Position numbers and translations under genes: made by a program
Shown: piece by piece, positions 1,623 through 19,442 of the stretch
Layout of the letters: each line of letters opens with the position of its first letter
How positions within the stretch are numbered: position 1 is the stretch's first letter
The notes under the pieces: model-generated
Database searches by the model: none
What the model saw: only the letters and a program-made list of their open reading frames with translations
What the model was told of the DNA's origin: nothing
From: a virus
Taxonomy: Duplodnaviria; Caudoviricetes
Strand: one strand, 5' to 3'
Length of the DNA stretch: 30,249 nucleotides
Virus record (IMG/VR): IMGVR_UViG_3300016476_000331
Location: 1 to 30,249 of that record

Positions 1623-1638
1623 GTTTTGGTGGACCGTC

Positions 1639-1906: not shown

Positions 1907-2521
1907 ATGCAACCCACGACACCCACTATTTTTGAAGAGCCCAGCGACTGGGAAAAGCCTGACGAGTCCCGCTTTGCGATGGACTCCAAGCTGTACGTCG
2001 AGTTTTACCGCAAGCCTGTCCTGCAGCCCGGCAAGAGCCGCGAAGCAGGCCGAGCCGTGTACGAGGAGGTGGACTACATCCGCATCCACGTCCCCGGCGA
2101 CAAGCATTCTGTGGTCGAGCGCCCGATGAGCGATCAGGACGCGTTCCGCTTTGCTGATCGATACGCCAAATGGAAGGCTGGCCAGGAAGAGGCCGTCACT
2201 GGCACGCCGCTCACCGCCCTGCCTGGCATGACGCCGTCCAAGGTTGAGGAATACAAGTTCTTCAAGATCGTGACGATCGAGCAGCTGGCAGAAGCCAACG
2301 ACAACCTGGGCGGTAAGTTCATGTCGTTCCAGCAGGACAAGCAGCGCGCCAAGGCGTTCCTCGAGGTGGCCAAGAACAACGCCCCCATCGAGAAGATGAA
2401 CGAAGAGCTGGCCAAGCGCGATGCGGAGCTCGAAGAGCTGCGCAACATGGTGACGGCCCTCCAGGCCAACGCCAAGAGCAACAAGCGGGCTGTCGCGGCA
2501 ACGGCCGAGACGACCGAATAA
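1907..2521 (+). CDS. Hypothetical phage protein with C-terminal coiled coil
   Basis: 204 aa, good codon bias, located between the capsid and adaptor genes. Confidence 0.75.
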   Translation: MQPTTPTIFEEPSDWEKPDESRFAMDSKLYVEFYRKPVLQPGKSREAGRAVYEEVDYIRIHVPGDKHSVVERPMSDQDAFRFADRYAKWKAGQEEAVTGTPLTALPGMTPSKVEEYKFFKIVTIEQLAEANDNLGGKFMSFQQDKQRAKAFLEVAKNNAPIEKMNEELAKRDAELEELRNMVTALQANAKSNKRAVAATAETTE

Positions 2522-2533
2522 GAGGAGCAGGGG

Positions 2534-3283
2534 ATGGCCTTTCAAATTGTTGACGAAACCACGCTGTCGGCCATTGTCCGCAATGTGGCCTCGATGGTGG
2601 CCTTCCCCGTCCCCGCCGACCCCGCTGGTGATCCTGACCCGACTGTCCAGCAGTTCGTGCAGGCCGCCAACATGGCGGGCATCGAGCTGCTGACCATGTA
2701 CGACTGGCAGGAGCTCATCAAGAACTACGAGATCCCCATCCAGTCGGACTTCAACCAGCAGCGCCAGAAGGGCTTTCCGCTCCCCGAGGACTTCTTCGAC
2801 TGGATCGACCAGACCAACTGGAACGCGACCACGCAGTTCCCGTCCCTGGGCCCGGTGTCGCCACAAATGTGGCAGCAGCTGATCATCCGCACGACGCTGC
2901 CGGTGCTGTCGTTCTACTGGCAGGTGCGCGACAACATGATCTACGTCCTGGCGCCCCCTGACTCGCCGCAGACGATGAGCGTCTACTACCTGTCCCAGGC
3001 TTGGGTGCAGGACCAGGACGACCCGACCCTGTTCAAGAACCGCATTACCAAGAACGGCGACAAGTCTTTGCTCGACCCCACGCTGATCACGCTGTACACC
3101 CGCGTGAAATGGTTGGAGATGAAGGGCCTGGACACCGCCGCGGCAATGCGTGATTTCCAACTGACTTTTGAGAACCGCAAGGGCATGGAGAAGGGTGCGC
3201 CGGTGCTGAGCATGGCCCGCGACTTCCGCTTCCCGTACATCCAGCCGCTGGTCAACACGCCCGACACCGGCTATGGAGTCTGA
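2534..3283 (+). CDS. Head-tail adaptor / tail tubular protein A-like
   Basis: 249 aa, SD GAGGAG. YDWQEL and FPLPEDF motifs, size, and position before the nozzle gene fit podovirus adaptors. Confidence 0.65.
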   Translation: MAFQIVDETTLSAIVRNVASMVAFPVPADPAGDPDPTVQQFVQAANMAGIELLTMYDWQELIKNYEIPIQSDFNQQRQKGFPLPEDFFDWIDQTNWNATTQFPSLGPVSPQMWQQLIIRTTLPVLSFYWQVRDNMIYVLAPPDSPQTMSVYYLSQAWVQDQDDPTLFKNRITKNGDKSLLDPTLITLYTRVKWLEMKGLDTAAAMRDFQLTFENRKGMEKGAPVLSMARDFRFPYIQPLVNTPDTGYGV

Positions 3284-3285
3284 CC

Positions 3286-4878
3286 ATGCCCTTGATGCCG
3301 CTTCAAAGCCCGCGAGTCCCTAGACGGTCATACGCGGCGCAGACAGCACAGGTTGCAGTCGTTCCGGCCCCGACAGGCGGCCTGAACTACCGCGACCCCA
3401 TCACAGCGATGTCCCCCTTGGACGCGCTGGTCTTGACCAACTTCATCCCCAAGCAGCAGGGCGTCGAACTGCGCAGGGGCTGGAAACAGACCACCGCCAC
3501 GCTGGGCGAATCAATTGAATCGGTGTTCGGCTACACCGCCCCCAGCTCCGCGAACAACAAGGTTTTCGTGGCTGCCAACGGCAACATCTACGACGTGACC
3601 GACGGCACCTACACCGAGGTCGTCACCGGCACTGGCAGCGATACCGACGAGTGGTGGACCACGCAGTTCTCCACGCCCGCGGACACGTTCCTGCTGGCCG
3701 TCTCGCCTGGCGCCGGGTACTGGACCTACAGCACCAGCACAGGCTGGGTTGACCGTACCGCGACCACCACCGGCCTGCCGACAACCGTGCGCACTGTGGC
3801 CGTATGGAAGCAGCGCGTCTGGTTCACGGCCGAGGGCGACTCCAACGTCTACTACCTTGACAACGTGGATGTGATCTCGGGCAGCTGCACATCGTTTGCG
3901 ATGGGCTCGACCCTTCGCAACGGTGGCTACGTCTCCTCGCTGATCAACTGGACGATGGACGCTGGTTTCTCGGTCGATGACTTCCTGATTGTCGTCGGCA
4001 CTGAAGGCGACATCGGCGTGTGGCAGGGAACTGATCCGACCAGCGCTGACACCTTCAGCCTGAAGGGCGTCTGGTACGTCGGCCCGGTGCCGCGGCATGG
4101 CCAATACTTCACGCCCTTTGGTGGCGACGTGATGATCGTCTCCGAGCTCGGCCTGGTGCCCATGTCAAAGCTGGTGGCCGGGCAGTACAGCCAGGATCAG
4201 CAGATCGGCCCCGCGTCCAAGATCCAGTCAGTGTTTGCGCCTCTGGTGCGCAAGCAGCTCAACCAAAAGTACTTTGACGTGTTTGTGGTGCCGTCGTCCG
4301 ACGTGCTGGTGATTAAGATGCCTGCCGATGCTGGCACTTATCGCCAGTTCGCCATGAACGTCACCACGGGTGCCTGGTGTCAGTTTGTGGGCATGCCCAT
4401 GCGCAGCGCGGCTGTCATCGACGGCAAGCTGTACTTTGGCACCGAGGACGGCTTCACCTGCTTGGGCCTGTTTGGCGACAAGGACGGCGTGGACGAGGCG
4501 GGTGCCGGTGGCAACTCTATCGAAGGCGAAGTGCAGACGGCCTTTCAGGCATTCAACACGCCCGCGCAGCTCAAGAAGTTCGGCATGGCCCGTCCGATCT
4601 TCATTGCCACCGCCCAGCCCGCGGTCAAGCTGGTGGTGAACACGCAGTTCCAGTTCAACACGGTGGGCGGCTCGCCGTACTTCTTCGAAGACGACAACGG
4701 CATCTGGGACGCAAGCGTGTGGAACGGTGCTAATTGGGTTGGCCAGAATACCTACCAGGCATGGTACGGGACTCAAGGCCTTGGCTACTACGGCTCGCTG
4801 CGCATGAAGGTGCGCGGCCTGCCTGCAACAGTTTTTACTTCAGCTCACATGTCCACTGAGCTGGGAGGAGTGATGTGA
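3286..4878 (+). CDS. Tail nozzle / tail tubular protein B-like (P22 gp10-like position)
   Basis: 530 aa, beta-rich. N-terminal PAPTGGLN motif and propeller-like segments; follows the adaptor. Confidence 0.7.
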   Translation: MPLMPLQSPRVPRRSYAAQTAQVAVVPAPTGGLNYRDPITAMSPLDALVLTNFIPKQQGVELRRGWKQTTATLGESIESVFGYTAPSSANNKVFVAANGNIYDVTDGTYTEVVTGTGSDTDEWWTTQFSTPADTFLLAVSPGAGYWTYSTSTGWVDRTATTTGLPTTVRTVAVWKQRVWFTAEGDSNVYYLDNVDVISGSCTSFAMGSTLRNGGYVSSLINWTMDAGFSVDDFLIVVGTEGDIGVWQGTDPTSADTFSLKGVWYVGPVPRHGQYFTPFGGDVMIVSELGLVPMSKLVAGQYSQDQQIGPASKIQSVFAPLVRKQLNQKYFDVFVVPSSDVLVIKMPADAGTYRQFAMNVTTGAWCQFVGMPMRSAAVIDGKLYFGTEDGFTCLGLFGDKDGVDEAGAGGNSIEGEVQTAFQAFNTPAQLKKFGMARPIFIATAQPAVKLVVNTQFQFNTVGGSPYFFEDDNGIWDASVWNGANWVGQNTYQAWYGTQGLGYYGSLRMKVRGLPATVFTSAHMSTELGGVM

Positions 4879-5822
4879 TGGCGACTGATTACGACCAACT
4901 TGTAAAAGACGCATATGCCGGGATTGGCCGTACTGGCGTCGGTTCTGCGACAAACCAAATTGACCCGGAAGGTCTGGCCTATTGGGTCAATCAAGCTCAG
5001 ACAAACAACTGGAGCCCGCAGCAGTTTTCCAACATTTTTGGAAACTCGGTGGCCCAATACATGGGGGAAAAGCCGCAGGATCGCTATTCCCAAGGAGTGG
5101 CCGACTACCTTGTGGATGCCGCGTATGGAGACATTGGGCGCACGGGTGTCGGGGCAACCCCGCAAAACGTTGATCAAGGTGGACGTGACTATTGGAGAAA
5201 TGAATTGCTGAGCGGAACAATAACGCCGTCTCAATTTCAAAATGAATTTGACAATGCCGTCACGCAATACATAAAAGCTAATCCAGCAGACCCCGTTTCA
5301 AGGTACGTTCAAAGTTACCTTGGCGCGAATCCATCGACGCAACTGCCAGTGACGATGAACTATCTGCAGCCTGGCGGAACGCTTCAGCAAGCGAATTCCA
5401 ACACCGGCCGTGAATGGGGCACTCCCGAGACTGTCGGCGCGTCCAATGGCCAACTGATGGGCGCAGGCAACGCGAATTACAACAGCGCGTTGATTCGTTC
5501 GCTGCGTCAGAGCTCGCTGACCCCGTTCAGCACCAACACAGGCGTGCTGATGGCCCCGAATCAAGGTGCAAGCACTAGTTTGGCGGCCGCCCCTTCTATG
5601 GACCAGATGGGGGGCGCGTTCAGTCCGCAGGTGCTGAATCCTCGCGCAGCTTCTGATCAAGAGGTGTCCGACTGGAACGCTTACAGCACCTACCGCACCA
5701 ACGCACTGAATGCAAAAACGCCGATTCTGAGCATGTCCGAGTGGCTAGCCGGCGGCAAGTCGGACGGAAAAGCGCCAATCGCCCCGCCCGCCACCAACGA
5801 CGAATACCTTTATTGGGCATGA
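4875..5822 (+). CDS. Hypothetical virion-module protein with two DUF4214-like repeats
   Basis: Repeats AYAGIGRTGVG...DPEGLAYW and AYGDIGRTGVG...DQGGRDYW. Overlaps both neighbours by 4 nt. Confidence 0.7.
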   Translation: MMATDYDQLVKDAYAGIGRTGVGSATNQIDPEGLAYWVNQAQTNNWSPQQFSNIFGNSVAQYMGEKPQDRYSQGVADYLVDAAYGDIGRTGVGATPQNVDQGGRDYWRNELLSGTITPSQFQNEFDNAVTQYIKANPADPVSRYVQSYLGANPSTQLPVTMNYLQPGGTLQQANSNTGREWGTPETVGASNGQLMGAGNANYNSALIRSLRQSSLTPFSTNTGVLMAPNQGASTSLAAAPSMDQMGGAFSPQVLNPRAASDQEVSDWNAYSTYRTNALNAKTPILSMSEWLAGGKSDGKAPIAPPATNDEYLYWA

Positions 5823-6223
5823 GGCTGGTGACAGACAAGCCTGGCGAGCACCCAGTGATCTGGGAATGGATGAGTCGGCACGTCGGTTTGCCTTGGTCGT
5901 CGGACCTGCGCACGATCGGGGTGATGCGAGAGGATGGGACAATAGCGGCAGCAGTTGGATTCAACTCCTGGACGCATGAGAGCTGCTGGATGCACGTCGC
6001 GTTCGACGGGCCTCACAGCATGACCAGAGACTTGATTCGGGCGGCGTTCAAGTACCCGTTCAAGGACTGTGGCAAGGCGGCGATTTACGCGCTGCCGTAT
6101 GCGGACAACGATGAGGCAATGCGCTTCATCCCGAAGATGGGTTTTAAGGAATTGGCGCGGACTGTGGACTGCGTGATGTTTGAAATGAAGGCAGAGGACT
6201 GCCGCTGGATCAAGGAGAACTGA
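5819..6223 (+). CDS. GNAT-family acetyltransferase-like protein
   Basis: ATGA overlap at 5819-5822. AAFKYPF...NDEAMRFIPKMGFKE resembles the GNAT C-terminal motif (N..A..F..K.GF). Typical position before ejection genes. Confidence 0.75.
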   Translation: MRLVTDKPGEHPVIWEWMSRHVGLPWSSDLRTIGVMREDGTIAAAVGFNSWTHESCWMHVAFDGPHSMTRDLIRAAFKYPFKDCGKAAIYALPYADNDEAMRFIPKMGFKELARTVDCVMFEMKAEDCRWIKEN

Positions 6224-6224
6224 C

Positions 6225-7517
6225 ATGGGTGGAAAAGGTGGAGCTCCAGAGACGCCCGACTATCTCGGTGCAACGCAACTTCAGGGCGAGCTCAACAAAG
6301 AGAACCTGAACACGCAGAACTACGCCAACCGGCCGACGATCAACACGCCGTTCGGCACGCAGTCGTGGGGCACTCAGTCGGTCACCGATCCGGCCACCGG
6401 CCAGGTGGTTACTGCCTGGACGCAGAACAACACGCTCGCGCCCGGCCTGCAAAGCGCGCTGCAGGATCAGATCAACATCCAGGCTGGCCGCAGCGACCTT
6501 GCCAACAGCTTCATGGGCCGCGTGGCCAATGAGTACGCCAGCGCTCCTGACTACAGCAACCTGCCTCAGATGGCCCAGGCTGCTCGGCCTACCAGCCTGC
6601 AGACCGGCACCACTGACTATGTGCCGGGCTTGGCCACGTCCTTCAACTTTGGCAACCCCCTGCCGCAGTTCGACTCGTCCTACCGCGACACGGTGGCCAA
6701 CCAGCTGATGGAGAAGATGCAGCCGACGCACGACTACCAGCAGCGACAGCTCGAGGCCAAGCTCTCGAACATGGGGTTTCGCGCTGGCACCGAAGGCTAC
6801 GACCGCGAGCTGCGCAACCTGAACAACCGCCAGGCTGCCGAGCGCTACAACGCGCTGGACACGGCTGGCAACGAGGCTCAGCGTCTGTACAACATGCAGA
6901 TGGGCACCGCGCAGCAGGGCTACAACCAGAACCTGCAGGCTGCTCAATTCCAAAACCAGGCGCTCAACCAAGCGCAAGGCATGGACCTGGCCAACATGCA
7001 AGCGGGCAACCAGGCAGCCGCACAGCAGTACGGCCTCAACCAGCAGTTTGCCAACCAGCAAAACCAACTGCGCCAGCAGGCCATCACCGAGATGCTGCAG
7101 CGCCGTGGCACGTCGCTCAACGAGATGAACGCGCTGCTGTCGGGTCAGCAGGTGCAGATGCCCCAGATGCCGTCGTTCAATCAATCCGGCATGGCGCAGA
7201 CGCCCAACATCATGGGCGCCCTGCAATCGCAGTACGACTCACAGCTCGGCGCGTACAACGCTCAGCAGGCGGGCCTGAACAACCTGCTTAGTGCCGGTGC
7301 TCAGCTCGGCTCGGCCGCGTTCATGTTCTCCGACCGTCGCCTGAAGGCCAACATCAAGCGCGTTGGCACTCACGCGATCGGTGTGGGCATTTACGACTAC
7401 ACAATGATGGGAATGCCGCAACGCGGTGTGATTGCCCAAGAAGTTCAAGCGGTGCGACCTGACCTCGTCAAGCGTCATGCCAACGGTTACTTGATGGTGA
7501 ATTACGGAGGCCTGTGA
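6225..7517 (+). CDS. Internal virion / DNA ejection protein with C-terminal peptidase S74-like domain
   Basis: MGGKGG start and Gln/Asn/Ala-rich helical body. C-terminal SDRRLKANI...GVIAQEV...VNY is the S74 (intramolecular chaperone) signature. Confidence 0.75.
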   Translation: MGGKGGAPETPDYLGATQLQGELNKENLNTQNYANRPTINTPFGTQSWGTQSVTDPATGQVVTAWTQNNTLAPGLQSALQDQINIQAGRSDLANSFMGRVANEYASAPDYSNLPQMAQAARPTSLQTGTTDYVPGLATSFNFGNPLPQFDSSYRDTVANQLMEKMQPTHDYQQRQLEAKLSNMGFRAGTEGYDRELRNLNNRQAAERYNALDTAGNEAQRLYNMQMGTAQQGYNQNLQAAQFQNQALNQAQGMDLANMQAGNQAAAQQYGLNQQFANQQNQLRQQAITEMLQRRGTSLNEMNALLSGQQVQMPQMPSFNQSGMAQTPNIMGALQSQYDSQLGAYNAQQAGLNNLLSAGAQLGSAAFMFSDRRLKANIKRVGTHAIGVGIYDYTMMGMPQRGVIAQEVQAVRPDLVKRHANGYLMVNYGGL

Positions 7518-7885
7518 TGAATGACGATCTGATGTTCGACTACCTGGTGTCGATGGGCCAGATGCGCCCAGAAGAGGCCGAGCTGAAGAAGCGCCAGGCA
7601 ATGGTGGACGCGCTGCGCAAGAATGCCATGACGCCCATGCAGGGCGAGATGATCGGCAAGCACTACGTCGGCCCCGGCATTGCAGGTGCGATCAGCCAAC
7701 TGGGCCAGGCGTACATGGCCAGCAAAGGCCAAGAAGGCCTCGACACCAAGATGCGCGACTTCAATTCGCGCCAGGCTATGGAGCTCGAGAGGCTGCGCCG
7801 CCGTCGTCTTGGCAATGCTCCTGGCGGCTCCGCATGGGGCATGGACCTTGGCGTAGATGACGGCTACGGTTTTGGAGGCCAATGA
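7514..7885 (+). CDS. Hypothetical (probable internal virion) protein
   Basis: 123 aa, coupled to both neighbours by 4-nt overlaps, SD GGAGG. Confidence 0.7.
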   Translation: MMNDDLMFDYLVSMGQMRPEEAELKKRQAMVDALRKNAMTPMQGEMIGKHYVGPGIAGAISQLGQAYMASKGQEGLDTKMRDFNSRQAMELERLRRRRLGNAPGGSAWGMDLGVDDGYGFGGQ

Positions 7886-8961
7886 TGGACTACAGCCTCA
7901 TGCCTGATGAGGATCTGCCATCGCAGGGCCTTGTCCTCAAGAAAGCTCGCGCCAAGATGTCGGCTGGCGGCACGTTGTCCAACGTCGCGCCGAGCGCTGA
8001 AACCATGCTGCCCACCACGCGCCAGCGCTTGAGCAAGATCTACGGCGAACTGGACAAGCTCGACACGCAGGACGTGGACACCGGCGCGCTGCAGGCTTTT
8101 GCCAAGCAGCAAAGTGAGCAGGGCCAGGGCGCCATGCTCAACGCCCTGGCAGCGCAGTTTGCTGGCGAGAGCTTTGACCCGATCCAGGCGCAGTACATCA
8201 AGCGAGCAAACGCAGCCTCTGAACCCATGAAGGTCGGCGGCGGCATCCTTACGCCCGATGGTCAGTTCATCAAAGACCCGTTCGCAGCACGCGACGCTCG
8301 CCGCACTTCGCTTGAGCGCCAGGCTCTTGGCATGGAGAAGATGATCACCGACGAGCGCGAAAACGATCGCCGCCGCGAGGATCGTCTTGCGCAGCAGGCT
8401 TCGCTGGACGCATATCGTCAAGCATCCTTGGCCCTCCGAGGCAACGACAGTGCCCACGACTCGCGTTTGTGGCGCGCCGAGGACACGCTGCGCGGCGACT
8501 TTGACAAGATCACCAAGGATCTGCGCGATGAGCTGACAGCCACCAGCAAGATCACGCAGATCGTTGGCGCAACACCGCCTGGCCAAAAACCTGACGCGAT
8601 CACTCAGCAATCGCTGGTGATCTTGCTCAACAAGTTCCTCGACCCAGGCTCGGTGGTGCGCGAGGGCGAATTCGACCGCGTGGTAAAAGCACAAGGCCTC
8701 GAGGGCCGCGCCCGCAACCTAGCCGACCGCATCCTCAAGGGCCAGCCCTTGGATGCCAACACGATCGGCCAGATCAACGGCCTGGCGCAGCTCTACAACC
8801 AGGCGGCCGAAACTAAGATCCAGAAGTACGCCGACGACTACACCGCGATCGCACAGCGTCGCAAGCTGAACCCCGAGAACGTGATCAGCGATCCGCGCTT
8901 CCGTCGTGGTGGTTCGTCTGCAGGCGGCAACGTGGTGGACTTCAACAGCCTGCCGAAGTGA
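7882..8961 (+). CDS. Probable internal virion / ejection protein
   Basis: 359 aa, helical. LDPGSVVREGEF motif is characteristic of podovirus DNA transfer proteins. Confidence 0.7.
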   Translation: MMDYSLMPDEDLPSQGLVLKKARAKMSAGGTLSNVAPSAETMLPTTRQRLSKIYGELDKLDTQDVDTGALQAFAKQQSEQGQGAMLNALAAQFAGESFDPIQAQYIKRANAASEPMKVGGGILTPDGQFIKDPFAARDARRTSLERQALGMEKMITDERENDRRREDRLAQQASLDAYRQASLALRGNDSAHDSRLWRAEDTLRGDFDKITKDLRDELTATSKITQIVGATPPGQKPDAITQQSLVILLNKFLDPGSVVREGEFDRVVKAQGLEGRARNLADRILKGQPLDANTIGQINGLAQLYNQAAETKIQKYADDYTAIAQRRKLNPENVISDPRFRRGGSSAGGNVVDFNSLPK

Positions 8962-8966
8962 GGTGA

Positions 8967-10886: not shown

Positions 10887-10897
10887 AGGAGTGACAC

Positions 10898-13288
10898 ATG
10901 CCACGCAACGCATCCGGCGTCTACACGCTGCCCGCAGGGAACCCGGTCGTACCGGGTACCACGATCGACGCCGCCTGGGCGAATGACACGCTCGAAGACC
11001 TGGCAAACGAAGTCACCAACAGCCTGTCGCGCACCGGTGCTGGTGGCATGCTGGCTCCCTTTCGTTTGGCTGACGGCACCGTTACCGCTCCCGGCATTGC
11101 CTGGCTGAACGAAACCAACAGCGGCCTGTACCGCAGCGGCGCAGGCTCGACCTGGATGTCGATCCTCGGCGTGAACACCGCCCAGTTCTCGACCGTCGGC
11201 CTGACCATCCCGTTTGGCAAGGCGCTGACCGCGCAGGGCAACGCCAGCGTGGCGGGCACATTCTCTGTCGGTGGCCACACAACGCTGTCCTCTACGCTTG
11301 CCGTGACTGGTGCGCTTACCGCATCGGGTGGAGTTATTGGCAACGTCACAGCGGCAACCGGAACCTCCACCTTCAACGATGTGGTAATTGCTGGCGCGCT
11401 GGACATGACGGCTGGCAGTTCGGCCACCATCACTGGCCTGAACAACCCCACCAATCCCAGCGATGCGGCCAACAAGAGCTACGTCGACGCGCAGGACGCG
11501 CTCAAACTGTCGCTCACAGGTGGCACGATGTCCGGCGTTATCGCTATGGGAAACAACAAGGTCACTGGCCTTGCTACCCCCACCGCGGATGCTGACGCAG
11601 CAACCAAGGCCTACGTTGACAGCGTGGCTCAAGGCTTAGATGTCAAAGGCTCCTGCCGCGCTGCCACCACTGGCAACATCACCCTGTCGGGCACTCAGAC
11701 GATCGACGGCGTGGCTGTTGTGGCTGGTGACCGTGTGCTGGTCAAGGATCAATCCACCTCGTCGCAGAACGGCATCTACGTCGCCGCGGCTGGAGCCTGG
11801 TCGCGTGCATCGGACGCCGATACTTGGGCCGAGCTGGTTGGAGCGTTCACCTTTGTCGAAGACGGCACAGTCAACGACAACTCTGGCTGGGTCTGCACAG
11901 TGGCTCCTGGCGGCACGCTCGGCACCACTGCGGTGACTTGGGAGCGGTTCTCTGGCGCCGGTCAGATCAATGCCGGCACCGGCATGACCAAGACCGGCAA
12001 CACGCTCAACGTTAACACCGCCTCGTCTTCGCGCATCGTTGTAGGCGCTGACGAGATTGACCTTGCAACCACTGGTGTGACTGCTGGCACCTACAAGTCG
12101 GTGACAGTTGATCAGTGGGGCCGCGTGACTGCAGGCACCAACCCGACCACGTTGGCCGGGTACGGCATCACCGACGCGTACACCACCACGCAGGTGGACA
12201 CAGCTCTTGCGCTCAAGCTGAACCTGACCGGCGGCACGATGTCTGGCGCGATCGCGATGGGCGCCAACAAGATCACCGGCATGGGTGATCCGACCAACCC
12301 GCAGGACGCGGCCACCAAGTCGTACATCGACACCATCTTTGGTTCGACCACTACGGCGGCTGCTTCTGCTGCTGCAGCAGCGGCCTCCGCATCTGCGGCA
12401 GCCACGTCGGCCACGAACGCAGCCAACAGCGCCACCGCGGCTGCAGGCTCGGCCACATCGGCCGCCAACTCGTTCACGACGTTCAACGATCAGTACCTGG
12501 GCAGCAAGACCAGCGACCCGAGCACCAACAACAGCGGCGGTGCGCTGGTGGCTGGCAACCTGTACTGGAACAGCACTGTCAGCGAGATGCGCGTCTACAA
12601 CGGCTCGACTTGGGTCGCTGCGTACATCCCCGCTGGCGGCTACCTGCCGCTCACCGGCGGCACGATGACCGGCGTGATCACGTTTGCCAGCGCGCAGACG
12701 TTTGATGGCACCAAGGTGTCGGGCAACATTTCCGGCAACGCGGCCAACGTGACGGGCACTGTGGCGGTTGCCAACGGCGGCACGGGGTCGACCACGGCGT
12801 CGGGCGCTCGCACTTCGCTGGGCTTGGTCATCGGCACCGATGTGCAGGCGTACAGCGCCAACCTCACTACTTGGGCTGGCAAGACCGCCCCTACCGGCAC
12901 GGTGGTGGGCACGACCGACACTCAGACGCTGAGCGGCAAGACGATCAGCGCGGGCATCTTCAATGACGGCTACACCGAGGAAACCGTCACCGCCAACACC
13001 GGCACCGCGTACACGATTGCGCTGGCCAACGGCACGGTGCAGATTCTGACGCTGACGGGCAACTGCACGTTTACTTTCCCCACGGCCACCGCTGGTCAGT
13101 CCTTTATTCTGCTGCTCAAGCAGGACGGCACCGGCTCGCGCACGGTGACCTGGCCCGCGGCTGTGAAATGGCCTGGCGGCACTGCGCCGACGATCACTGC
13201 AACCGCGTCTAAGCTCGACAAGTACATCTTCACCAGCGACGGCACGAACTGGTACGGCAGCAACGCTGGTCAGAACTACACGGTGTAA
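10898..13288 (+). CDS. Tail fibre protein
   Basis: MPRNASGVYTLP N-terminal anchor, repeated LTGGTMSG and DAATKxYVD motifs, GDRVLVKDQ...NGIY domain, Ala/Ser linker, C-terminal QDGTGSRTVTWP domain. Confidence 0.88.
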   Translation: MPRNASGVYTLPAGNPVVPGTTIDAAWANDTLEDLANEVTNSLSRTGAGGMLAPFRLADGTVTAPGIAWLNETNSGLYRSGAGSTWMSILGVNTAQFSTVGLTIPFGKALTAQGNASVAGTFSVGGHTTLSSTLAVTGALTASGGVIGNVTAATGTSTFNDVVIAGALDMTAGSSATITGLNNPTNPSDAANKSYVDAQDALKLSLTGGTMSGVIAMGNNKVTGLATPTADADAATKAYVDSVAQGLDVKGSCRAATTGNITLSGTQTIDGVAVVAGDRVLVKDQSTSSQNGIYVAAAGAWSRASDADTWAELVGAFTFVEDGTVNDNSGWVCTVAPGGTLGTTAVTWERFSGAGQINAGTGMTKTGNTLNVNTASSSRIVVGADEIDLATTGVTAGTYKSVTVDQWGRVTAGTNPTTLAGYGITDAYTTTQVDTALALKLNLTGGTMSGAIAMGANKITGMGDPTNPQDAATKSYIDTIFGSTTTAAASAAAAAASASAAATSATNAANSATAAAGSATSAANSFTTFNDQYLGSKTSDPSTNNSGGALVAGNLYWNSTVSEMRVYNGSTWVAAYIPAGGYLPLTGGTMTGVITFASAQTFDGTKVSGNISGNAANVTGTVAVANGGTGSTTASGARTSLGLVIGTDVQAYSANLTTWAGKTAPTGTVVGTTDTQTLSGKTISAGIFNDGYTEETVTANTGTAYTIALANGTVQILTLTGNCTFTFPTATAGQSFILLLKQDGTGSRTVTWPAAVKWPGGTAPTITATASKLDKYIFTSDGTNWYGSNAGQNYTV

Positions 13289-13918
13289 ATGATGGGACGC
13301 TTCCGTGATTTAACTGGCGAACGATTTGGCAGGTTGCTTGTTTTGCAGCGCGACGGTTGCAACAAGCACGGCCAAGTTAAATGGTGGTGCCGCTGCGACT
13401 GCGGTACGGAAAAGCACGTTCTTGGCATGTGCTTGTCTCGCGGAGAAACGCAATCGTGTGGGTGCTTGCACAAAGAAAAAACTTCTGAGGCAAGCAAAAT
13501 TCACGGCATGACTCAAACGCAAATTTATGGACTTTGGCGCGGCATGATTCAGCGTTGCACCGACATAAACCACCCGCGTTATTCGGATTACGGCGGCAGG
13601 GGAATAAACGTTTGCCCAGCGTGGCAGACGTTTGAAGGCTTTTATGCCGCGATGGGTGACAGGCCAACTGGAATGTCGCTTGAAAGAAAAGACGTAAATG
13701 GCGATTACTGCCCAGATAATGTGGTGTGGGCAAGCGCCAAAGCGCAAGCAAACAATCGACGCAGCAATGTCGTTCTTGAACACGCAGGAAAGAGGCAAAC
13801 CATGCAGCAATGGTGCGATGAACTTGAACTAAAGATTGGCACCGTGTGGGCGCGAATCAATCGCGGCTGGGCCGCCTCCCGCGCTTTGACTCAGGAGGTG
13901 CGTCATGTTCAGTGCTAA
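13289..13918 (+). CDS. Homing endonuclease-like protein (HNH-related)
   Basis: DLTGERFGRL, WWCRCDCG, SCGC, YGGRGI, SLERKDVNGDYCPDNVVWA...QANNRR motifs. More AT-rich than its flanks. Confidence 0.85.
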   Translation: MMGRFRDLTGERFGRLLVLQRDGCNKHGQVKWWCRCDCGTEKHVLGMCLSRGETQSCGCLHKEKTSEASKIHGMTQTQIYGLWRGMIQRCTDINHPRYSDYGGRGINVCPAWQTFEGFYAAMGDRPTGMSLERKDVNGDYCPDNVVWASAKAQANNRRSNVVLEHAGKRQTMQQWCDELELKIGTVWARINRGWAASRALTQEVRHVQC

Positions 13919-15818
13919 CACCTCCCAAGTTTCTCAAGACGCTGTTTTTATCGAAGACACGTTTTCGAGCTATTTGTACACCGGCACCGGGGCTGCACTG
14001 ACGATCAACAACGGCATTGATCTGGCGGGAAAGGGCGGGTTGGTTTGGTTTAAATCGCGTTCTAATGCCTATAGCAATGCATTGTTGGATACAGCAAGGG
14101 GAACTAACAAGATGCTGCAGTCAGATTCGACGGCAGCTAACTCCACATTCAATTACTTAACCTCGTTCAATTCAAACGGTGTCACATTTCCCGGAAGCTT
14201 TGCCGTCAACAATAACAACGGAGCAACTTACGCTTTATGGACCTTCCGCAAGCAGCCGAAGTTCTTTGATGTGGTGACGTATACGGGTGATGGTACTGCA
14301 AATAGAAGTGTTTCGCATAGCCTTGGTAGTACACCCGGATGCATTATTGTTAAACAAACAAATACAACAAGAAGTTGGTTTGTCTTTCATCGCTCTCTTG
14401 CTAATGGCGGCACAACAGAAGAATTGAGTTTGAATTCAACCGCAGCCGCTAGTGGTAACGGGTATTTCCCGGCAGTATCTTCCACAACCTTTAGCGTCAG
14501 CGCATCATCTGCTGTTAACCAAAGCGGCGGCACCTACGTCGCCTACCTGTTTGCCCACGACGCAGGCGGCTTTGGCCTGACTGGCACGGACAATGTGATT
14601 TCGTGTGGGTCTTATACCGCAAGCGGTACATCTACAACTGTCACGCTAGGTTATGAACCTCAATGGGTGCTAATCAAGAAGACCAATGTGGCAGGCGACA
14701 ACTGGAGATTGCTGGACACCATGCGGGGGATGACTGTCGCAGGCTCTACCAAATACACACTTGCACCAAATACATCAGCGGCAGAAGAGTCATGGTCTGA
14801 TGCGGCTTCACCAAGCGCAACTGGTTTTACTGTTGATGGTGCGGGTTTAAATGATGGTGGCGATTCCTACATCTACATCGCCATCCGTCGCGGCCCGATG
14901 AAGACGCCGACGAGTGGGACGAGTGTGTTTGCGCCTGTAACGTATACAGGTGATGGGACAAATACGCTAGACATCACGGCTGGATTTCCTGTTGATATGT
15001 TCCTCAACAGCCTTACCAATGTTGCCGATGAAAGGCTTTTAAAGGATAGACTGCGCGGCGGTGGTGTGACGTTGAGTGTCACTGAGACAACCGCTGAAAG
15101 CACCTCCTACACCATCGGGTTTGATTCAAATACGCAAATTCTGAACATGCCTTCATCGTGGTACAGCCAGAACGGTGTTCCGTATGTTGACTGGCTTTTT
15201 AGACGTGCTCCAAGTTTTTTTGATGTGGTGTGCTACACGGGGACGGGTTCTGCTCTCACGGTGAATCACAACTTGGGGGCGGTGCCGGAGCTGATGATTG
15301 TGAAGCGGCGCGACAGCACTGGTTTTTGGGCTGTCTATAGTGCTGCTACCGGAGCCGCAAACGTACTTGAACTCCAAAGCTCAGCGGCATCAACAAGCGG
15401 TACGGCGTGGAATTCCACTGCTCCAACAGCGTCTGTATTTACAGTTGGAAATACGATCGCCACGGGGGTCTCTGGAGGAACCTACGTCGCCTACCTCTTT
15501 GCCTCCTGCCCCGGCGTGAGCAAGGTTGGCAGTTATTCAGGCACAGGTGCACTGCAAACCATCAACTGTGGCTTTACATCAGGGGCGCGGTTCGTCCTCA
15601 TCAAGCGCACCGACAGCACAGGTGACTGGTGGCTCTACGACTCAGCCCGTGGAATTACTAGCGGCAACGACCCGTATCTGTTCTTGAACACACAGTCGGC
15701 TCAAGTCACCAACACCAACTACGTTGACACCGACACCACCGGCTTTAAGGTAACCGCAGCAGCCCCGGCAGGACTGAATGCGTCGGGTGGAACCTATATT
15801 TTCTTGGCGATTGCCTGA
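13905..15818 (+). CDS. YTG-repeat virion structural / receptor-binding-like protein
   Basis: Repeated YTGxG, FFDVVxYTG, HxLGxxP, GxTYVAYLFA motifs; two tandem units of about 317 aa. SD AGGAGG lies inside the upstream gene. Confidence 0.75.
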   Translation: MFSANTSQVSQDAVFIEDTFSSYLYTGTGAALTINNGIDLAGKGGLVWFKSRSNAYSNALLDTARGTNKMLQSDSTAANSTFNYLTSFNSNGVTFPGSFAVNNNNGATYALWTFRKQPKFFDVVTYTGDGTANRSVSHSLGSTPGCIIVKQTNTTRSWFVFHRSLANGGTTEELSLNSTAAASGNGYFPAVSSTTFSVSASSAVNQSGGTYVAYLFAHDAGGFGLTGTDNVISCGSYTASGTSTTVTLGYEPQWVLIKKTNVAGDNWRLLDTMRGMTVAGSTKYTLAPNTSAAEESWSDAASPSATGFTVDGAGLNDGGDSYIYIAIRRGPMKTPTSGTSVFAPVTYTGDGTNTLDITAGFPVDMFLNSLTNVADERLLKDRLRGGGVTLSVTETTAESTSYTIGFDSNTQILNMPSSWYSQNGVPYVDWLFRRAPSFFDVVCYTGTGSALTVNHNLGAVPELMIVKRRDSTGFWAVYSAATGAANVLELQSSAASTSGTAWNSTAPTASVFTVGNTIATGVSGGTYVAYLFASCPGVSKVGSYSGTGALQTINCGFTSGARFVLIKRTDSTGDWWLYDSARGITSGNDPYLFLNTQSAQVTNTNYVDTDTTGFKVTAAAPAGLNASGGTYIFLAIA

Positions 15819-15830
15819 TAGGAGCAACAA

Positions 15831-16274
15831 ATGGAAATCAGAATTCGAGACACGGGCAACGTGGTGACGGAGCAAGAGTTCCGCGCCATGTTCCCTAACA
15901 CAGGCTTTCCTGTGCCGTTGACCGCCGAGATCATCAGCGAGTTTGGTGGCGATGTGGTGCTCGAGGGGCCGCAAGCCCAACCGACACGCTACCAAATTGC
16001 TTTCCGTGACGGCGTGCAGCAGATCGAGGGCCAGTGGTTCACCAAGTACAGCGTGGCCGACATGGAGCAGGAGGCCAAGGACGCGCTGGACGCTCAGCAA
16101 GCCGCATCGCAGCGCGCCTACCGCAACACGCTGCTGAGCGACTGCGACTGGACCCAACTGCAGGACGCGCCGGTCAACCAGCAGGCCTGGGCGAACTACC
16201 GCCAGGCGCTGCGCGACGTGACCAAGCAGGCGGGGTTCCCTTGGGATATCGCCTGGCCCGAAAAGCCGCAGTGA
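15831..16274 (+). CDS. Tail fibre assembly chaperone
   Basis: C-terminal RNTLLSDCDWTQLQDAP...WANYRQALRDVTKQAGFPWDIAWPEKP is the classic Tfa-like motif. Confidence 0.88.
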   Translation: MEIRIRDTGNVVTEQEFRAMFPNTGFPVPLTAEIISEFGGDVVLEGPQAQPTRYQIAFRDGVQQIEGQWFTKYSVADMEQEAKDALDAQQAASQRAYRNTLLSDCDWTQLQDAPVNQQAWANYRQALRDVTKQAGFPWDIAWPEKPQ

Positions 16275-16334
16275 GCGATGCGATAATCACCCCACAAAAA
16301 TTATTTCTCAACCCACGACGCCACTGGAGATTAC

Positions 16335-16514
16335 ATGGAACTGACAATTCAACTGGAGCTGAACGAAGTCAACGCGGTGCTGGACGCAATCGGGGCCCTC
16401 CCGACGCACACCAACACATGGCCCATCGCGGCCAAGATCCGCGCACAGGCTGCCGCTCAACTCCCGCAGCAACAGGAGCAGCAAGATGGCGGGCAGGGAA
16501 GTACAGCTGACTGA
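16335..16514 (+). CDS. Small hypothetical protein (59 aa, not in ORF track)
   Basis: SD GGAG at 16326-16329. Translates MELTIQLELNEVNAVLDAIGALP...GSTAD*, with good codon usage, and fills the gap. Confidence 0.7.
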   Translation: MELTIQLELNEVNAVLDAIGALPTHTNTWPIAAKIRAQAAAQLPQQQEQQDGGQGSTAD

Positions 16515-16674
16515 CGAGCAGATCGAGGCGATCGCGGAGCGAGCTGCCGAGGTCGCCTTCGAGAAGATCTACAAGGAGGTCGGCAAGTCGGTCTTGACCA
16601 GACTTGCATGGATGGCCGGCGCGGCAGTTGTCGGCCTCTTCATGTGGGTGGGCACCTGGCACACGCCCAAGTGA
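16486..16674 (+). CDS. Small single-TM membrane protein (lysis region)
   Basis: 62 aa, acidic N-terminus, hydrophobic LAWMAGAAVVGLFMWVG. Confidence 0.7.
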   Translation: MAGREVQLTDEQIEAIAERAAEVAFEKIYKEVGKSVLTRLAWMAGAAVVGLFMWVGTWHTPK

Positions 16675-16681
16675 GCCTGCC

Positions 16682-17146
16682 GTGATTGCCGAGCTGGCCG
16701 CTGCCAACGCTGCGTTCGCGGTCATCAAGCACGCCGTCGCCAACGCGGGCGACATCATGGCCGCCGGCCAAAAGCTGTTCGATTACTTCGACGCCAAGGC
16801 GGCCATCCAGCGCAAGGTCAACGAGCGCGCACAGGGCAAGGGCAGCACCGAGGGCTCAAGCGACTGGGAAGAGTTCCAGGCCCTCGAGCAGCTCAAGGCG
16901 CAGGAAGAGCACCTGCGCGAATCCATGATTTATGCCGGCCGCCCAGGCCTCTGGGACGACTGGCTCAAATTCCAAGCCGAGGCTGCGCGCAGGCGCAAGG
17001 CCGCCATTGAGGCCGAGATCAAGCGCAAGAAGGCACTGCGCGACCGCATAGAGCAGGCGTTCTGGTGGGGTGCGCTGGTCGTTACGCTGAGCTGCGCTGC
17101 GGCGTTTTTTGTCGTCATGTATTCGATGTTCAATGGAAGGGGCTGA
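16682..17146 (+). CDS. Membrane-anchored coiled-coil protein (lysis region)
   Basis: Probable GTG start at 16682 (MIAELAAANAAF...). Helical body with one C-terminal TM segment. Confidence 0.7.
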   Translation: MIAELAAANAAFAVIKHAVANAGDIMAAGQKLFDYFDAKAAIQRKVNERAQGKGSTEGSSDWEEFQALEQLKAQEEHLRESMIYAGRPGLWDDWLKFQAEAARRRKAAIEAEIKRKKALRDRIEQAFWWGALVVTLSCAAAFFVVMYSMFNGRG

Positions 17147-17148
17147 TC

Positions 17149-17652
17149 ATGCTGTCGTTGTTGTCCACCCTCGGAGGCCTGCTCATCAGCGGCCTGCCCA
17201 AGCTCTTGGAGTATTTCCAGGCCCGAGCTGACCACAAGCATGAGCAGGAGCTGGCGCGCATCCAGACCCAGCGCGACCTTGAGATGGCTGCCAAGGGCTT
17301 TGCCGCACAGCAGCGCGTCGAGGAGATCAAGTTTGACCAGATCGCCCTGCAGACCGACGCGCAGATGACCACGGCCGCGCTGGATCACGACAAGGCTGTG
17401 CTGGCCAAGGCTTCGCGCTGGGTGGCCAACTACGTCGGGACGGTGCGCCCCACCGTCACCTACATCTTCGTGTTTGAGCTGGTGTCGATCAACGCCTTCC
17501 TGTGCTACTACCTGTGGACCCACCCGGCCCTGGTGGTCAGCATCGAGGACGTGCTGCGCTACTCGGACATCATCTTCAGCACCGACGAGATGGCCATGCT
17601 GGGCGGCATCATCGGCTTCTGGTTTGGCAGCCGGGGCTGGAGCAAGAAGTGA
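17149..17652 (+). CDS. Putative holin (3-TM type)
   Basis: ATG 17149 (MLSLLSTLGG...). VRPTVTY and IIGFWFGSR motifs, hydrophobic segments, GTGA overlap with the lysozyme. Confidence 0.7.
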   Translation: MLSLLSTLGGLLISGLPKLLEYFQARADHKHEQELARIQTQRDLEMAAKGFAAQQRVEEIKFDQIALQTDAQMTTAALDHDKAVLAKASRWVANYVGTVRPTVTYIFVFELVSINAFLCYYLWTHPALVVSIEDVLRYSDIIFSTDEMAMLGGIIGFWFGSRGWSKK

Positions 17653-18179
17653 GGCTGTCGGATCAGGGCGCGGCCCTGATGCACCGCTACGAGGGGTGCC
17701 GGGACCGTCCCTACCTGTGCCCGGCCCACATGTGGACCATCGGCTACGGCCACGTCCTGTACCAAGACCAGCTGCGGCTGCCGATGGCCAGGACGCCCGA
17801 GACGCGCACGCTGCCCAAGATCCGCAAGGAGTACCCGCTGCGGCCCGAGCATTTCCGCGTCTGGGGCAAGGAGGAGATTGATGCGCTATTCCAGGCTGAT
17901 GTCGCTTCTTTTGAGCGCGGTGTTCTACGACTTGCTCCCGGCTTGGCTGGCCATCAAGGCGCTTTTGACGCTTGCGTCTCTTTCGCGTTTAATGCCGGGC
18001 TAGGCAACTTCCAGCGCTCCCAGATCCGCATGAAGGTGAACCGGGGCGACTGGCAGGGCGCGGCCGATGCATTTATGCAGTGGACCAAAGGCGGGGGCAG
18101 GGTGCTGCCCGGCCTGGTGGCCAGGCGCAAAGCAGAGCGCCAGCTTTTCTTGTCAAGCGCTCAAGAAACTGTGCCATAA
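17649..18179 (+). CDS. Endolysin, GH24 phage lysozyme
   Basis: GTG start at 17649. EGCRDRPYLCPAHMWTIGYGH, FDACVSFAFNAG and LPGLVARRKAE motifs. Confidence 0.93.
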   Translation: MRLSDQGAALMHRYEGCRDRPYLCPAHMWTIGYGHVLYQDQLRLPMARTPETRTLPKIRKEYPLRPEHFRVWGKEEIDALFQADVASFERGVLRLAPGLAGHQGAFDACVSFAFNAGLGNFQRSQIRMKVNRGDWQGAADAFMQWTKGGGRVLPGLVARRKAERQLFLSSAQETVP

Positions 18180-18188
18180 ATGTGCCGC
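18170..18188 (+). repeat. Left pair of integrase arm-type direct repeats
   Basis: TGTGCCAT (18170) and TGTGCCGC (18181), 11-bp period. Confidence 0.65.
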
Positions 18189-18223
18189 GCACCGTGACGA
18201 TTGCAGTTGCCATTGCAAACCTT

Positions 18224-18247
18224 GGCCCGTTAATTCGGGCCTTTTTT
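18224..18247 (+). terminator. Rho-independent terminator ending the late operon
   Basis: GGCCCG-TTAATT-CGGGCC followed by T6. Confidence 0.85.
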
Positions 18248-18257
18248 GTATCCTTTA

Positions 18258-18269
18258 GGATTGTGATTC
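18258..18269 (+). other. Candidate attP core (copy of tRNA-His anticodon loop)
   Basis: GGATTGTGATTC is identical to 18394-18405 in the tRNA and is centred between the two arm-repeat pairs. Confidence 0.65.
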
Positions 18270-18330
18270 TGGTGAGTTTTTCTCCTAAGCCCTTGTCACT
18301 GTTGAGTTTTTGTAGGCGTAGAATCGGATT

Positions 18331-18349
18331 TGTGCCATTTTTGTGACAC
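18331..18349 (+). repeat. Right pair of integrase arm-type direct repeats
   Basis: TGTGCCAT (18331) and TGTGACAC (18342), 11-bp period, same orientation as the left pair. Confidence 0.65.
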
Positions 18350-18364
18350 AAACAAGGTTTCAGT

Positions 18365-18441
18365 GGTGGCTGTAGCTCAGTTGGTAGAGCCCTGGATTGT
18401 GATTCCAGCCGTCGTGGGTTCGAGTCCCATCAGCCACCCCA
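18365..18441 (+). tRNA. tRNA-His (GTG), complete with G-1 and encoded CCA
   Basis: GGTGGCTGTAGCTCAGTTGGTAGAGC-CCTGGA-TTGTGAT-TCCAG-CCGTC-GTGGG-TTCGAGT-CCCAT-CAGCCAC-CCCA folds as a cloverleaf and is close to proteobacterial tRNA-His. Confidence 0.97.
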
Positions 18442-18446
18442 TTTCT

Positions 18447-19403
18447 TCACAGCCCGACCCTTTCCGCTGCCGCGGCCAGGTGCTCGGGCGAGAGGTGGGC
18501 ATAACGCTGCACCATCTCATGCGAGTGCCATCCCCCCAGCTCCTGCAGCACTGACAATGGCGTCCCGGCCATCGCGTGCCAGCTTGCCCAGGTGTGGCGC
18601 AGGTCGTGGAATCTGAAGCCAGGCACGCCAGCGCGCTTGCAAGCCGCCTCCCAGGTGTTGGCCCACACCCGCGTCATATCGCCCCATACGCGGCCTGTGC
18701 GGGGCTCTGGTAGCGATGCCAACAGCTCCCTGGCCTGACTGTTCAATGGCACCACAATGCGATGCCCAGCTTTGGCCTCGTCGGCCTCCACAACCGCCAC
18801 CCCACGCTCCAAGTCCACCTTCTCCCAAGTCAGGCCAAAAACATTCGATCTTCTCAACCCGGTGAGCAAAGCGAAACGGACTGGCATCCGATACTTTTCC
18901 GGGAGATTTGCGATCAAAACCTCAGCTTGCTCGCGTGACAGAAATGCGACACGACGCTTGGGCTCTGCCTCGGACTTGAGGACGGGGGCGCGGTCCAGCC
19001 AATCCCAATCGCGCTCGGCAGAACGCAACATGGCCCGCACCAGAGCGCGGTACCGGTTCCTGGTGCTTCCGGTCACGTCCTGGGGAAGTGCCTCCTCGAT
19101 GTCGTCGCGGGTGATGTCGGCAAGTTGCTTGGCCCCCAGCTTGGGCAGGAAATAGTTGATCTTGTCCTGATCCTCGCTGATTGACTTCTTATGGCCGCGC
19201 TCTGTGAGCCAGCGCGCACAGGCGTCCTTGAAGGTCTTCTTGGGGCGAGCCTTGAGAACCTTGCCCTGCCACAGCTCGGCCCTGCGAATGTCGTACAGGT
19301 TCTGCGCTTGCTTTTTGTCGTTGGTCTTGAGTGATTCCCGGATGCGAACGCCATTGATTTGAACGTCCATCCAGTACACGTCGCCGCGAAGTTTGATAGC
19401 CAT
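18447..19403 (-). CDS. int: Tyrosine recombinase (phage integrase)
   Basis: TGLRRSNV (R), EAKAG (K), FHDLRHTWAS (HxxR), LGGW (W), RYAH (Y). ATG 19403 follows SD AAAAGGA. Confidence 0.95.
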   Translation of the reverse strand: MAIKLRGDVYWMDVQINGVRIRESLKTNDKKQAQNLYDIRRAELWQGKVLKARPKKTFKDACARWLTERGHKKSISEDQDKINYFLPKLGAKQLADITRDDIEEALPQDVTGSTRNRYRALVRAMLRSAERDWDWLDRAPVLKSEAEPKRRVAFLSREQAEVLIANLPEKYRMPVRFALLTGLRRSNVFGLTWEKVDLERGVAVVEADEAKAGHRIVVPLNSQARELLASLPEPRTGRVWGDMTRVWANTWEAACKRAGVPGFRFHDLRHTWASWHAMAGTPLSVLQELGGWHSHEMVQRYAHLSPEHLAAAAERVGL

Positions 19404-19442
19404 GTCGTGGGTTCCTTTTGGTTCGTTTGTCCATATATGGTG

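Follow-up and report, generated by a model that had tools for sequence, protein, structure and literature searches.

The question raised by this locus is which partner is addressed by a short box that recurs at translation starts of a tailed phage. It was examined in the window, i.e. the whole stretch of 30,249 nucleotides of the IMG/VR record IMGVR_UViG_3300016476_000331 (Duplodnaviria; Caudoviricetes). The box AACCCACGAC is present as exact 10-mer at 1911-1920 (+), 16310-16319 (+) and 19404-19413 (-). A fourth exact copy is the complement of 18411-18420, the part of a whole tRNA-His (18365..18441, +) that shares the seed sequence described below. The original prediction had named the three start regions and the tRNA-His complement with the same coordinates, and had proposed an antisense circuit over these starts with tRNA-His as partner. 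Antisense pairing was retained in our analysis, the partner was not. A one-mismatch inverted copy at 1636-1645, just 3' of the stop codon of the major capsid gene, had been missed and is the key to the box partner.

Boxes at translation starts

The first box covers codons 2-5 of a 204-aa gene (1907-2521) and begins 4 nt past the A of the ATG; the N-terminus of the protein is predicted to be disordered (pLDDT <50). The second is located in the leader of a 59-aa gene (16335-16514), 25 nt 5' of the ATG, and is kept in the leaders of orthologues. Neither the 204-aa nor the 59-aa protein could be assigned through Pfam, Atlas or PDB folds, and the former designation of the 59-aa frame as first lysis-region ORF is supported by no family match. 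The third box lies between SD and ATG of the tyrosine integrase gene int (18447..19403, -; PF00589, E 5.8e-26; phrog_1), with the real start at 19403 and a product of 318 aa. All three contexts had been described correctly. The core of the int box is kept in 11/20 close int relatives, while the leader further upstream diverges, and a sigma-70-like promoter match is found near int at 19471-19443. Furthermore, a degenerate box with one mismatch, absent from the earlier description, was detected at 24746..24753 (-), 5' of a 60-aa early-region gene (24551-24733), the orthologues of which carry exact boxes in 4/9 other genomes.

A function of the box as integrase core or arm site was rejected, since most sites are far from att and the box persists with other integrases. 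The probable attP core, to which this role is tentatively assigned, is a copy of the tRNA-His anticodon loop at 18258..18269 (+), flanked by arm-like repeats at 18170-18188 and 18331-18349.

The four exact copies in the window compare with 0.10 expected, and 0/100 shuffles of the window reach this number. As the box was chosen post hoc, the chance evidence from the window alone is modest: 28 different 10-mers are present at least four times, and some 10-mer occurred in at least 3 of 42 simulated start windows in 14/500 simulations. A reading in which A/C-rich starts and P-T-T codons yield the motif, by chance or by amino-acid constraint, can refer to the post hoc probability of about 0.03 in this window and to the two conserved sites that are coding. 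The counts against a background argue otherwise. With a Markov model restricted to start windows, the expectation for this 10-mer was 0.007-0.012. The 10-mer was found in 0/474 and the 8-mer core in 1/474 control start windows, taken at 26 loci where capsid relatives have no loop. The Mx8 region likewise served as control only. Relatives also keep the boxes at the corresponding starts. Within 779 start windows, 60 boxes are in mRNA sense and 0 in antisense; all 60 fall between -30 and +12. Boxes are predicted to be largely unpaired within their own mRNA context. The box is therefore confirmed as genuine.

Structure of the capsid 3' element

The inverted copy belongs to an element at 1623..1691 (+), proposed as a regulatory RNA of ~70 nt, which consists of a seed hairpin, a terminator-like stem and a U tract (MFE -35.4 kcal/mol, z -3.56). 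Its parent transcript is that of the major capsid gene (651..1622, +; phrog_9953 major head protein, E 1.5e-114). One strong copy is found per genome, with additional weak matches only at E>=0.05. Rfam gave no match over the element at E<=1 in the window and no gathering-score match in 8 relative loci, of which 2 hold the element. Between positions 1 and 3000 no sigma-70-like promoter was detected.

Hairpin P0 (1628..1649, +) contains the anti-box GTCGTGGGTC at 1636-1645, with the seed in the loop at 1636-1641. According to the predicted folds of 48 distinct element variants, seed positions 1-5 are unpaired in 90-100%, and in 31 of the 48 the P0 stem exceeds 95% of upstream shuffles in stability. 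The terminator-like stem P2 (1653-1685) with six T (1653..1691, +) shows compensatory change at 6/7 consensus pairs (42 sequences); it is absent from the output of a simple terminator scan. An alternative helix P1 (1639..1675, +), pairing 1639-1650 with 1664-1675, would mask the larger part of the seed, in competition with P2. P1 reaches at least 7 bp in 39/61 distinct elements in an automatic scan and, unlike P0, is not universal; 19 double changes were counted in it, versus 0/500 shuffles. Predicted folding favours P1 solely in transcripts ending at 1675-1683. Prediction and covariation together show that the two-hairpin fold is conserved. Of 18 RNA runs, all available as contigs only, 4 were compared. 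They contain relatives of the phage but give no ends or levels, and a depth drop 3' of the capsid gene was set aside as a readout.

Covariation of loop and boxes

Across 102 capsid loci the capsid-tail loop exists in several versions. Upstream of the capsid gene lies a gene of 378 aa, which carries the box in relatives. It has no Pfam or PHROG match and is termed scaffold-like because of its position alone. A usable start of this gene, from a simple custom caller as for all gene starts in relatives, was available at 80 loci. Here, loop GTCGTGG goes with box CCACGAC (33/33), GTGGTGG with CCACCAC (27/32, the other 5 loci being without scaffold box), GTGGTAG with CTACCAC (2/2) and aGGTGGTG with CACCACCT (4/5). 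The 7/7 loci without loop are also without box; at L082 the loop is mismatched. Mean pairing is 9.0 nt with the own element versus 5.7 for other-type swaps. At the 204-aa start, CCACGAC is present in 39/39 GTC-loop loci and also in 3 non-GTC loci; 6/42 GTGGTGG loci lack a box, and 4/4 aGGTGGTG loci show none of the patterns counted.

Non-coding sites covary as well. The box in the leader of a DUF7173 gene, present in 8/12 genomes, is of the own-loop type in every one, and the 59-aa leader box switches to CACCACCT along with the loop in one genome (G046). Start copies in 11 GTC genomes are 45 cognate versus 4 other-type, and in 7 GTG genomes 15 versus 0; at the starts of the two GTGGTGGC genomes, 0 cognate 8-mers were counted. 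A pattern scan of metagenomes yielded 120 loci, only 18 of which follow a capsid homologue. The remaining 102, unrelated or lacking a capsid match, were discarded, and the new starts follow the loop in 6/6 and 4/5 cases. The capsid tree was built by a quick method, leaves many forks open and includes relatives that are not independent; in it the loop types are interleaved, with several concerted switches and, inside a GTC clade, a joint loss of loop and boxes at L237. The cultured relative BUCT555 (72% capsid identity) was rejected as a model, being by eye without seed and boxes.

Thus, seed and box covary across relatives. The reading by chance or amino-acid constraint, to which we assign a negligible probability, is on the present set already refuted by this covariation: apart from the control windows without the 10-mer, the silent Thr position in the coding box tracks the loop, and the non-coding sites change with it.

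Pairing continues beyond the box into flanks specific to the element and reaches 24 bp at most. The degenerate box region at 24746-24753 forms an 18-bp duplex with the element (-26.1 kcal/mol). In another proposal, a phage protein binds both the boxes and the copy in the element, as DNA operators or as targets of an RNA-binding repressor, and its specificity changed with the sites. A short shared motif near starts suits a repressor site, and HTH proteins are encoded by the phage. Wobble-compatible changes exceed others (21 vs 5), but transition bias confounds this excess: the allowed changes are themselves transitions, so that RNA and DNA cannot be told apart by it. However, the strict polarity, with the sole inverted copy in a conserved hairpin loop, argues against protein sites, and an RNA-binding protein would not need a complementary copy. 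Complementarity that continues into element-specific flanks, the repeated concerted switches and the joint loss point in the same direction, and we consider a protein site improbable.

tRNA-His as candidate partner

Within the window alone, duplex energy cannot distinguish the element from tRNA-His as partner. The tRNA match of 10 nt is one base longer than that of the element, duplex energies are similar at int and the 59-aa gene, and in a free 3' half of the tRNA the six bases of the seed loop are again predicted to be exposed in a loop. The variable-loop/T-arm sequence of tRNA-His is identical to the seed of the GTC lineage. All 20 int starts retrieved with a pattern that left the variable base open read CCCACGAC. 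Furthermore, the anti-box was found in a cellular-type tRNA-His from the Polaromonas bin in which a related phage contig is also found.

The comparison of relatives argues against this partner. A whole tRNA is present in 6/38 related contigs and in 5/18 near-complete ones (hits of a relaxed ARAGORN scan were noise and were disregarded), and boxes persist without any phage tRNA-His. Four complete genomes (G007-G010) that differ in attachment site and contain no tRNA-His sequence retain them, and two relatives whose tRNA-His is without the anti-box still keep the int box. The covariation with the tRNA that had been suggested as a check was not observed: the boxes follow the capsid-tail loop instead (2 informative genomes vs 1). 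In G067 the tRNA-His has the anti-box, yet the boxes including that of int match the capsid-tail loop, and in G083 the boxes follow the element as well; G032 has a GTG loop but an int box of the tRNA type (GTC-type). For the 7 GTG-loop genomes, the tRNA-type 8-mer was counted in 0 start windows versus 15 of the own type, and a tRNA-type box in 0/40 non-GTC scaffold-like starts. The T stem of the intact tRNA engages half of the anti-box in base pairs.

The 24-bp duplex with the element in one relative (G033) has -44.6 kcal/mol, versus -23.0 with the tRNA half. Of 23 non-coding boxes, 9 favour the element and 8 the tRNA when the exact match is extended into the flanks. Flank covariation between phage tRNA and element was seen in 1 of 3 cases compared and is not supported. 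In general, tRNA-His is probably not the box partner, and we regard a tRNA-His of phage or host, whole or as 3' half, as a very improbable working partner of the boxes.

Proposed mechanism

Since the boxes are complementary to the capsid-tail loop and change with it, the 3' end of the capsid mRNA is likely a base-pairing RNA of ~70 nt, predicted to block ribosome loading at the boxed starts. The element is presumably expressed and processed, and from the box position alone we infer repression rather than activation. Late transcripts would stop at stem P2, and a 3' piece would be freed near the stop codon or would work while still attached. The P0 loop would nucleate pairing, which would then extend through the 5' arm to 9-24 bp, and the duplex would cover positions -30 to +20 of the start codon. 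With rising capsid mRNA, translation of the scaffold-like gene, the 204-aa and 59-aa genes, int and some early genes would decrease. Such feedback would fix capsid-to-helper ratios and shut off integration late in lytic growth. In read-through transcripts, P1 would mask the seed.

The same RNA-RNA pairing could have termination control as its main output. Box mRNA would bind the nascent seed and break P1, P2 would form, and read-through to the downstream morphogenesis genes would depend on untranslated box mRNA, e.g. the scaffold-like start on the same transcript. The compensatory change in P1, its exclusion of P2, its cover of the seed and its place as favoured fold just ahead of P2 completion fit this proposal. 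It leaves unexplained why all boxes fall in the ribosome footprint, and P1 is absent or weak in 22/61 elements of the automatic scan, including clades keeping the seed-box covariation, whereas P0 is universal. Termination control as main output is therefore regarded as unlikely; it is compatible with the block of ribosome loading, and both may coexist.

A more far-reaching and rather doubtful version takes the capsid message as late master regulator with a two-state 3' end, the switch of which is flipped by box mRNAs. The terminated form would expose the seed and silence the scaffold-like gene, int and early genes, and in the GTC lineage host tRNA-His halves could feed the same boxes.

If the proposed block of ribosome loading is correct, the tail of the most abundant phage message would serve to regulate multiple targets within the phage's own genome, and capsid output would be linked to scaffold supply and integration shut-off. 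To our knowledge, targets are known for few phage small RNAs. Here the entire target set is readable from the sequence, because seed and targets change together. Comparing the hairpin loop behind a gene with start windows across relatives would be applicable to all phage genomes and may reveal hidden RNA regulons.

Comparison with known systems

The element is a proposed ~70-nt RNA that is undescribed so far and has no Rfam match. Sites of a tRNA-derived fragment would follow the tRNA sequence, which most of the boxes do not. The C4 antisense RNA of phages P1/P7 (RF01695) and the CI RNA of P4 are, in the sections of PMC8198154 and PMC4825925 considered, likewise phage RNAs with short pairing to transcripts of the own phage and developmental control. 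Their source is an immunity or anti-repressor leader, and their targets for lysogeny lie on the same operon. The element, in contrast, follows the capsid gene, has predicted targets in many operons, and shows neither the Rfam match nor the immunity-leader location.

Small phage RNAs with post-transcriptional action, as presumed for the element, are VpdS (VP882), PreS (lambda) and 24B_1, acting in trans, and sar, OOP, aQ and STnc6030, which are cis antisense RNAs (PMC12197685, PMC7067206). Among the phage sRNAs described in the sections considered of these two sources, none is a 3' piece of a capsid mRNA. Unlike the element, the cis antisense RNAs are each fully complementary to a single long target, and PreS targets a host gene rather than phage genes. 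In the podovirus P22, scaffold synthesis is also under translational control. There the scaffolding protein autoregulates its translation, as far as taken from 10.1101/2022.12.13.520362; here the capsid-message RNA would be the regulator, the scaffold label being positional only.

The closest likeness is to bacterial sRNAs derived from 3' UTRs, i.e. OppZ and CarZ of Vibrio cholerae, CpxQ and SdhX, as presented in the part of PMC9438474 considered. OppZ, an RNA from an operon 3' end that represses its own operon, is the precedent (PMC9438474). As in OppZ and CarZ, a conserved seed is located between stop codon and a terminator-like stem, complementary and covarying sites are found at target starts, and a target within the parent operon would tune stoichiometry. 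Unlike these RNAs, the element is phage-encoded behind a capsid gene inside a longer late operon, and its predicted targets are late, early and integration genes. Furthermore, its seed sits in the loop of a hairpin with which a second helix competes, and seed and targets covary across genomes.

Box copies at start codons

The window covers 30 kb of a temperate podovirus-like phage and contains a capsid gene (651-1622), a tRNA-His (18365-18441), an integrase gene (int, 18447-19403), tail genes, endolysin, recombination genes, a repressor and a primase. Two HNH-type endonuclease genes are located directly before the capsid gene (25-639) and among the tail genes (13289-13918). The host is probably a betaproteobacterium, the weak basis being a Polaromonas bin that contains a relative with 83% capsid identity.

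The 10-mer box near start codons was located correctly in the original prediction; four copies were counted in the window versus 0.10 expected. With the post hoc choice allowed for, the signal is modest in the window alone (14 of 500 simulations). None of 474 control start windows, from 26 loci without the capsid-tail element described below, contained the 10-mer. The box is a real feature, and chance is a highly improbable explanation of its copies. It is conserved in relatives at the start of the 204-aa gene (1907-2521) and in the leader of the 59-aa gene (16335-16514). Its 8-nt core directly precedes the int ATG in 11 of 20 close integrase relatives, where the upstream leader is divergent, and was not found before int in the other nine. 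Additional box-bearing starts in relatives belong to scaffold-like, DUF7173, Sak4-like and 60-aa early-region genes. The scaffold-like gene (378 aa) adjoins the capsid gene upstream, outside the window, and is so named by position only. In 779 start windows of 18 genomes, 60 8-mers of the genome's own element type (cognate) were detected, all 60 in mRNA sense and with the first base between -30 and +12 of the start.

An extra cognate box lies about 90 nt 5' of the capsid ATG, after the scaffold-like gene, in three related genomes (G017:10322, G019:33505, G020:25331). The DUF7173 leader of the window is without a box; 10 nt at 24385-24394 (-) are complementary to the 5' tail of the element (1623-1632). 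This match may reflect chance or an additional way of pairing. The 59-aa gene is preceded by TGCGATAAT at 16279-16287, which is kept in relatives. We take it to be an extended -10-like motif, and it may be a separate promoter for this gene.

Element behind the capsid gene

A search with one mismatch identified an inverted box copy at 1636-1645, 13 nt 3' of the capsid stop codon. It had been overlooked in the original prediction and is part of a conserved element of about 70 nt (1623-1691), with one strong copy per genome in a model search and no match in Rfam. The predicted fold (-35.4 kcal/mol, z -3.56) consists of a small hairpin P0 (1628-1649) with the inverted copy, the seed, in its loop, a terminator-like stem P2 (1653-1685) and six U. 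Predicted folds leave the seed single-stranded in 90-100% of the 48 distinct variants. Compensatory changes were found at six of seven consensus pairs of P2. A competing helix P1 (1639-1675), masking most of the seed, occurs in 39 of 61 elements and is the favoured predicted fold just ahead of P2 completion. Among the 42 of 61 elements selected as alignable, P1 showed 19 double changes versus 0 of 500 shuffles.

Covariation of seed and box

Loops and boxes were compared in 102 of 136 distinct capsid loci (cut-off at least 63% identity). At the scaffold-like start, loop GTCGTGG (GTC type) was paired with box CCACGAC in 33/33 loci, GTGGTGG (GTG type) with CCACCAC in 27/32, the other five being without box, GTGGTAG with CTACCAC in 2/2 and aGGTGGTG with CACCACCT in 4/5. 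One locus had a mismatched loop, and all seven loci without loop were also without box. At the 204-aa start, a cognate box was present in 39/39 GTC loci; the 42 GTGGTGG loci comprised 34 with an exact or wobble cognate box, two with both types and six with none. Here the difference between GAC and CAC boxes is a silent Thr position.

The whole-genome count took in 21 genomes. In the 11 GTC genomes, start copies were 45 cognate versus 4 other-type, a rate about 26-fold above that elsewhere, and in the seven GTG genomes they were 15 versus 0; no cognate copies at starts were found in the two GTGGTGGC genomes. The non-coding DUF7173 leaders carried a box in 8/12 cases, of the own type in 8/8, and the box type of the non-coding 59-aa leader switches in one genome (G046). 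Pairing often spans the whole 5' arm of the element, up to 24 bp. New starts from a metagenome scan agreed in 6/6 and 4/5 cases. A quick capsid tree shows interleaved loop types, with one GTG group nested within GTC loci; since many forks are open, independent switches are roughly put at a few. In one locus (L237) loop and boxes are both lost. Attenuation, which would act through the same RNA-RNA pairing, is considered unlikely, and boxes serving as protein-binding sites are less likely still.

tRNA-His and attachment sites

The original prediction regarded the T-arm of tRNA-His as partner of the box. This was not supported, as the boxes mostly track the capsid-tail loop. A whole tRNA is present in 6 of 38 contigs. 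G007-G009 and G010 keep boxes without any tRNA-His sequence, and we read their attachment sites as tRNA-Cys and tRNA-Ser 3' parts. In G083 and L013 the int box is kept, although their tRNA-His lacks the anti-box. In G067, the tRNA-His contains the anti-box and the integrase is 76% identical, but the capsid-tail loop is of GTG type; the int box reads CCCACCAT and the three other boxes CCCACCAC. A counter-case is G032 with GTG loop and GTG-type boxes, but CCCACGAC as int box; this could be explained either by a recent exchange of the int module or by tRNA cross-talk. All 20 int starts recovered with a pattern scan belonged to the GAC type. When pairing was extended exactly into the flanks of 23 leaders, the element came out ahead in only 9 and the tRNA in 8. 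The six bases displayed by the element are also predicted to lie in a loop of the free tRNA 3' half, so cross-talk is conceivable. Nevertheless, the match of seed and tRNA is most likely a coincidence in one lineage, and the tRNA as box partner is improbable.

The tRNA-His attachment sites form a series of designs (window 18170-18441; L004-L010, L017, L018; G017, G019, G020, G029, G030, G033, G067). G033, G032, L008 and L010 have a 3'-half copy only, G029 and G030 this copy plus a whole tRNA. The window, G017, G019, G020 and G067 combine a short anticodon-loop core with a whole tRNA outside arm-like repeats, which would break the host tRNA and bring a whole replacement. An arm-like repeat at 19481-19488 (-) immediately precedes the -35 match in the promoter-like int sequence (19471-19443) and suggests integrase autoregulation. 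Related integrases (33-69% identical) of G007-G010, G013, G024 and G066 adjoin, in our reading, tRNA-Cys-, Ser- and Met-like sites; this variety would fit repeated retargeting within the family. In L013/L387 and L381 (G083) the T stem of the phage tRNA-His is recoded, with both strands altered together.

Proposed mechanism and known systems

The analysis demonstrates the element, the positions and polarity of the boxes and the seed-box covariation; the fold is supported by prediction and covariation. The transcript would end at 1691 by termination, and pairing would begin at the loop and cover the ribosome footprint of the targets. Release of a 3' piece would take place near the capsid stop codon, in line with what is known of bacterial 3' UTR sRNAs (PMC9438474). 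The targets would be repressed; sRNA pairing close to the start codon is established to stop initiation (PMC12197685). Rising capsid mRNA would thereby turn down the scaffold-like gene, two small late genes, int and some early genes.

The element would work like a 3' UTR-derived sRNA. Two features of this class are readable from the sequence: the seed lies between stop codon and terminator, and complementary sites occur at target starts. PMC10690425 contains 8,495 unannotated candidates, and the P0/P2 hairpin may be one of them, although the searched motifs were absent from the readable tables of that paper. No RNA from a capsid 3' end targeting phage starts was found in the searched literature, which most subscription papers lie outside. 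The element is not a member of the C4 or CI phage RNA families. OppZ feeds back on its own operon (PMC9438474), and the same logic is proposed here. In P22, scaffold synthesis is under translational control (10.1101/2022.12.13.520362).
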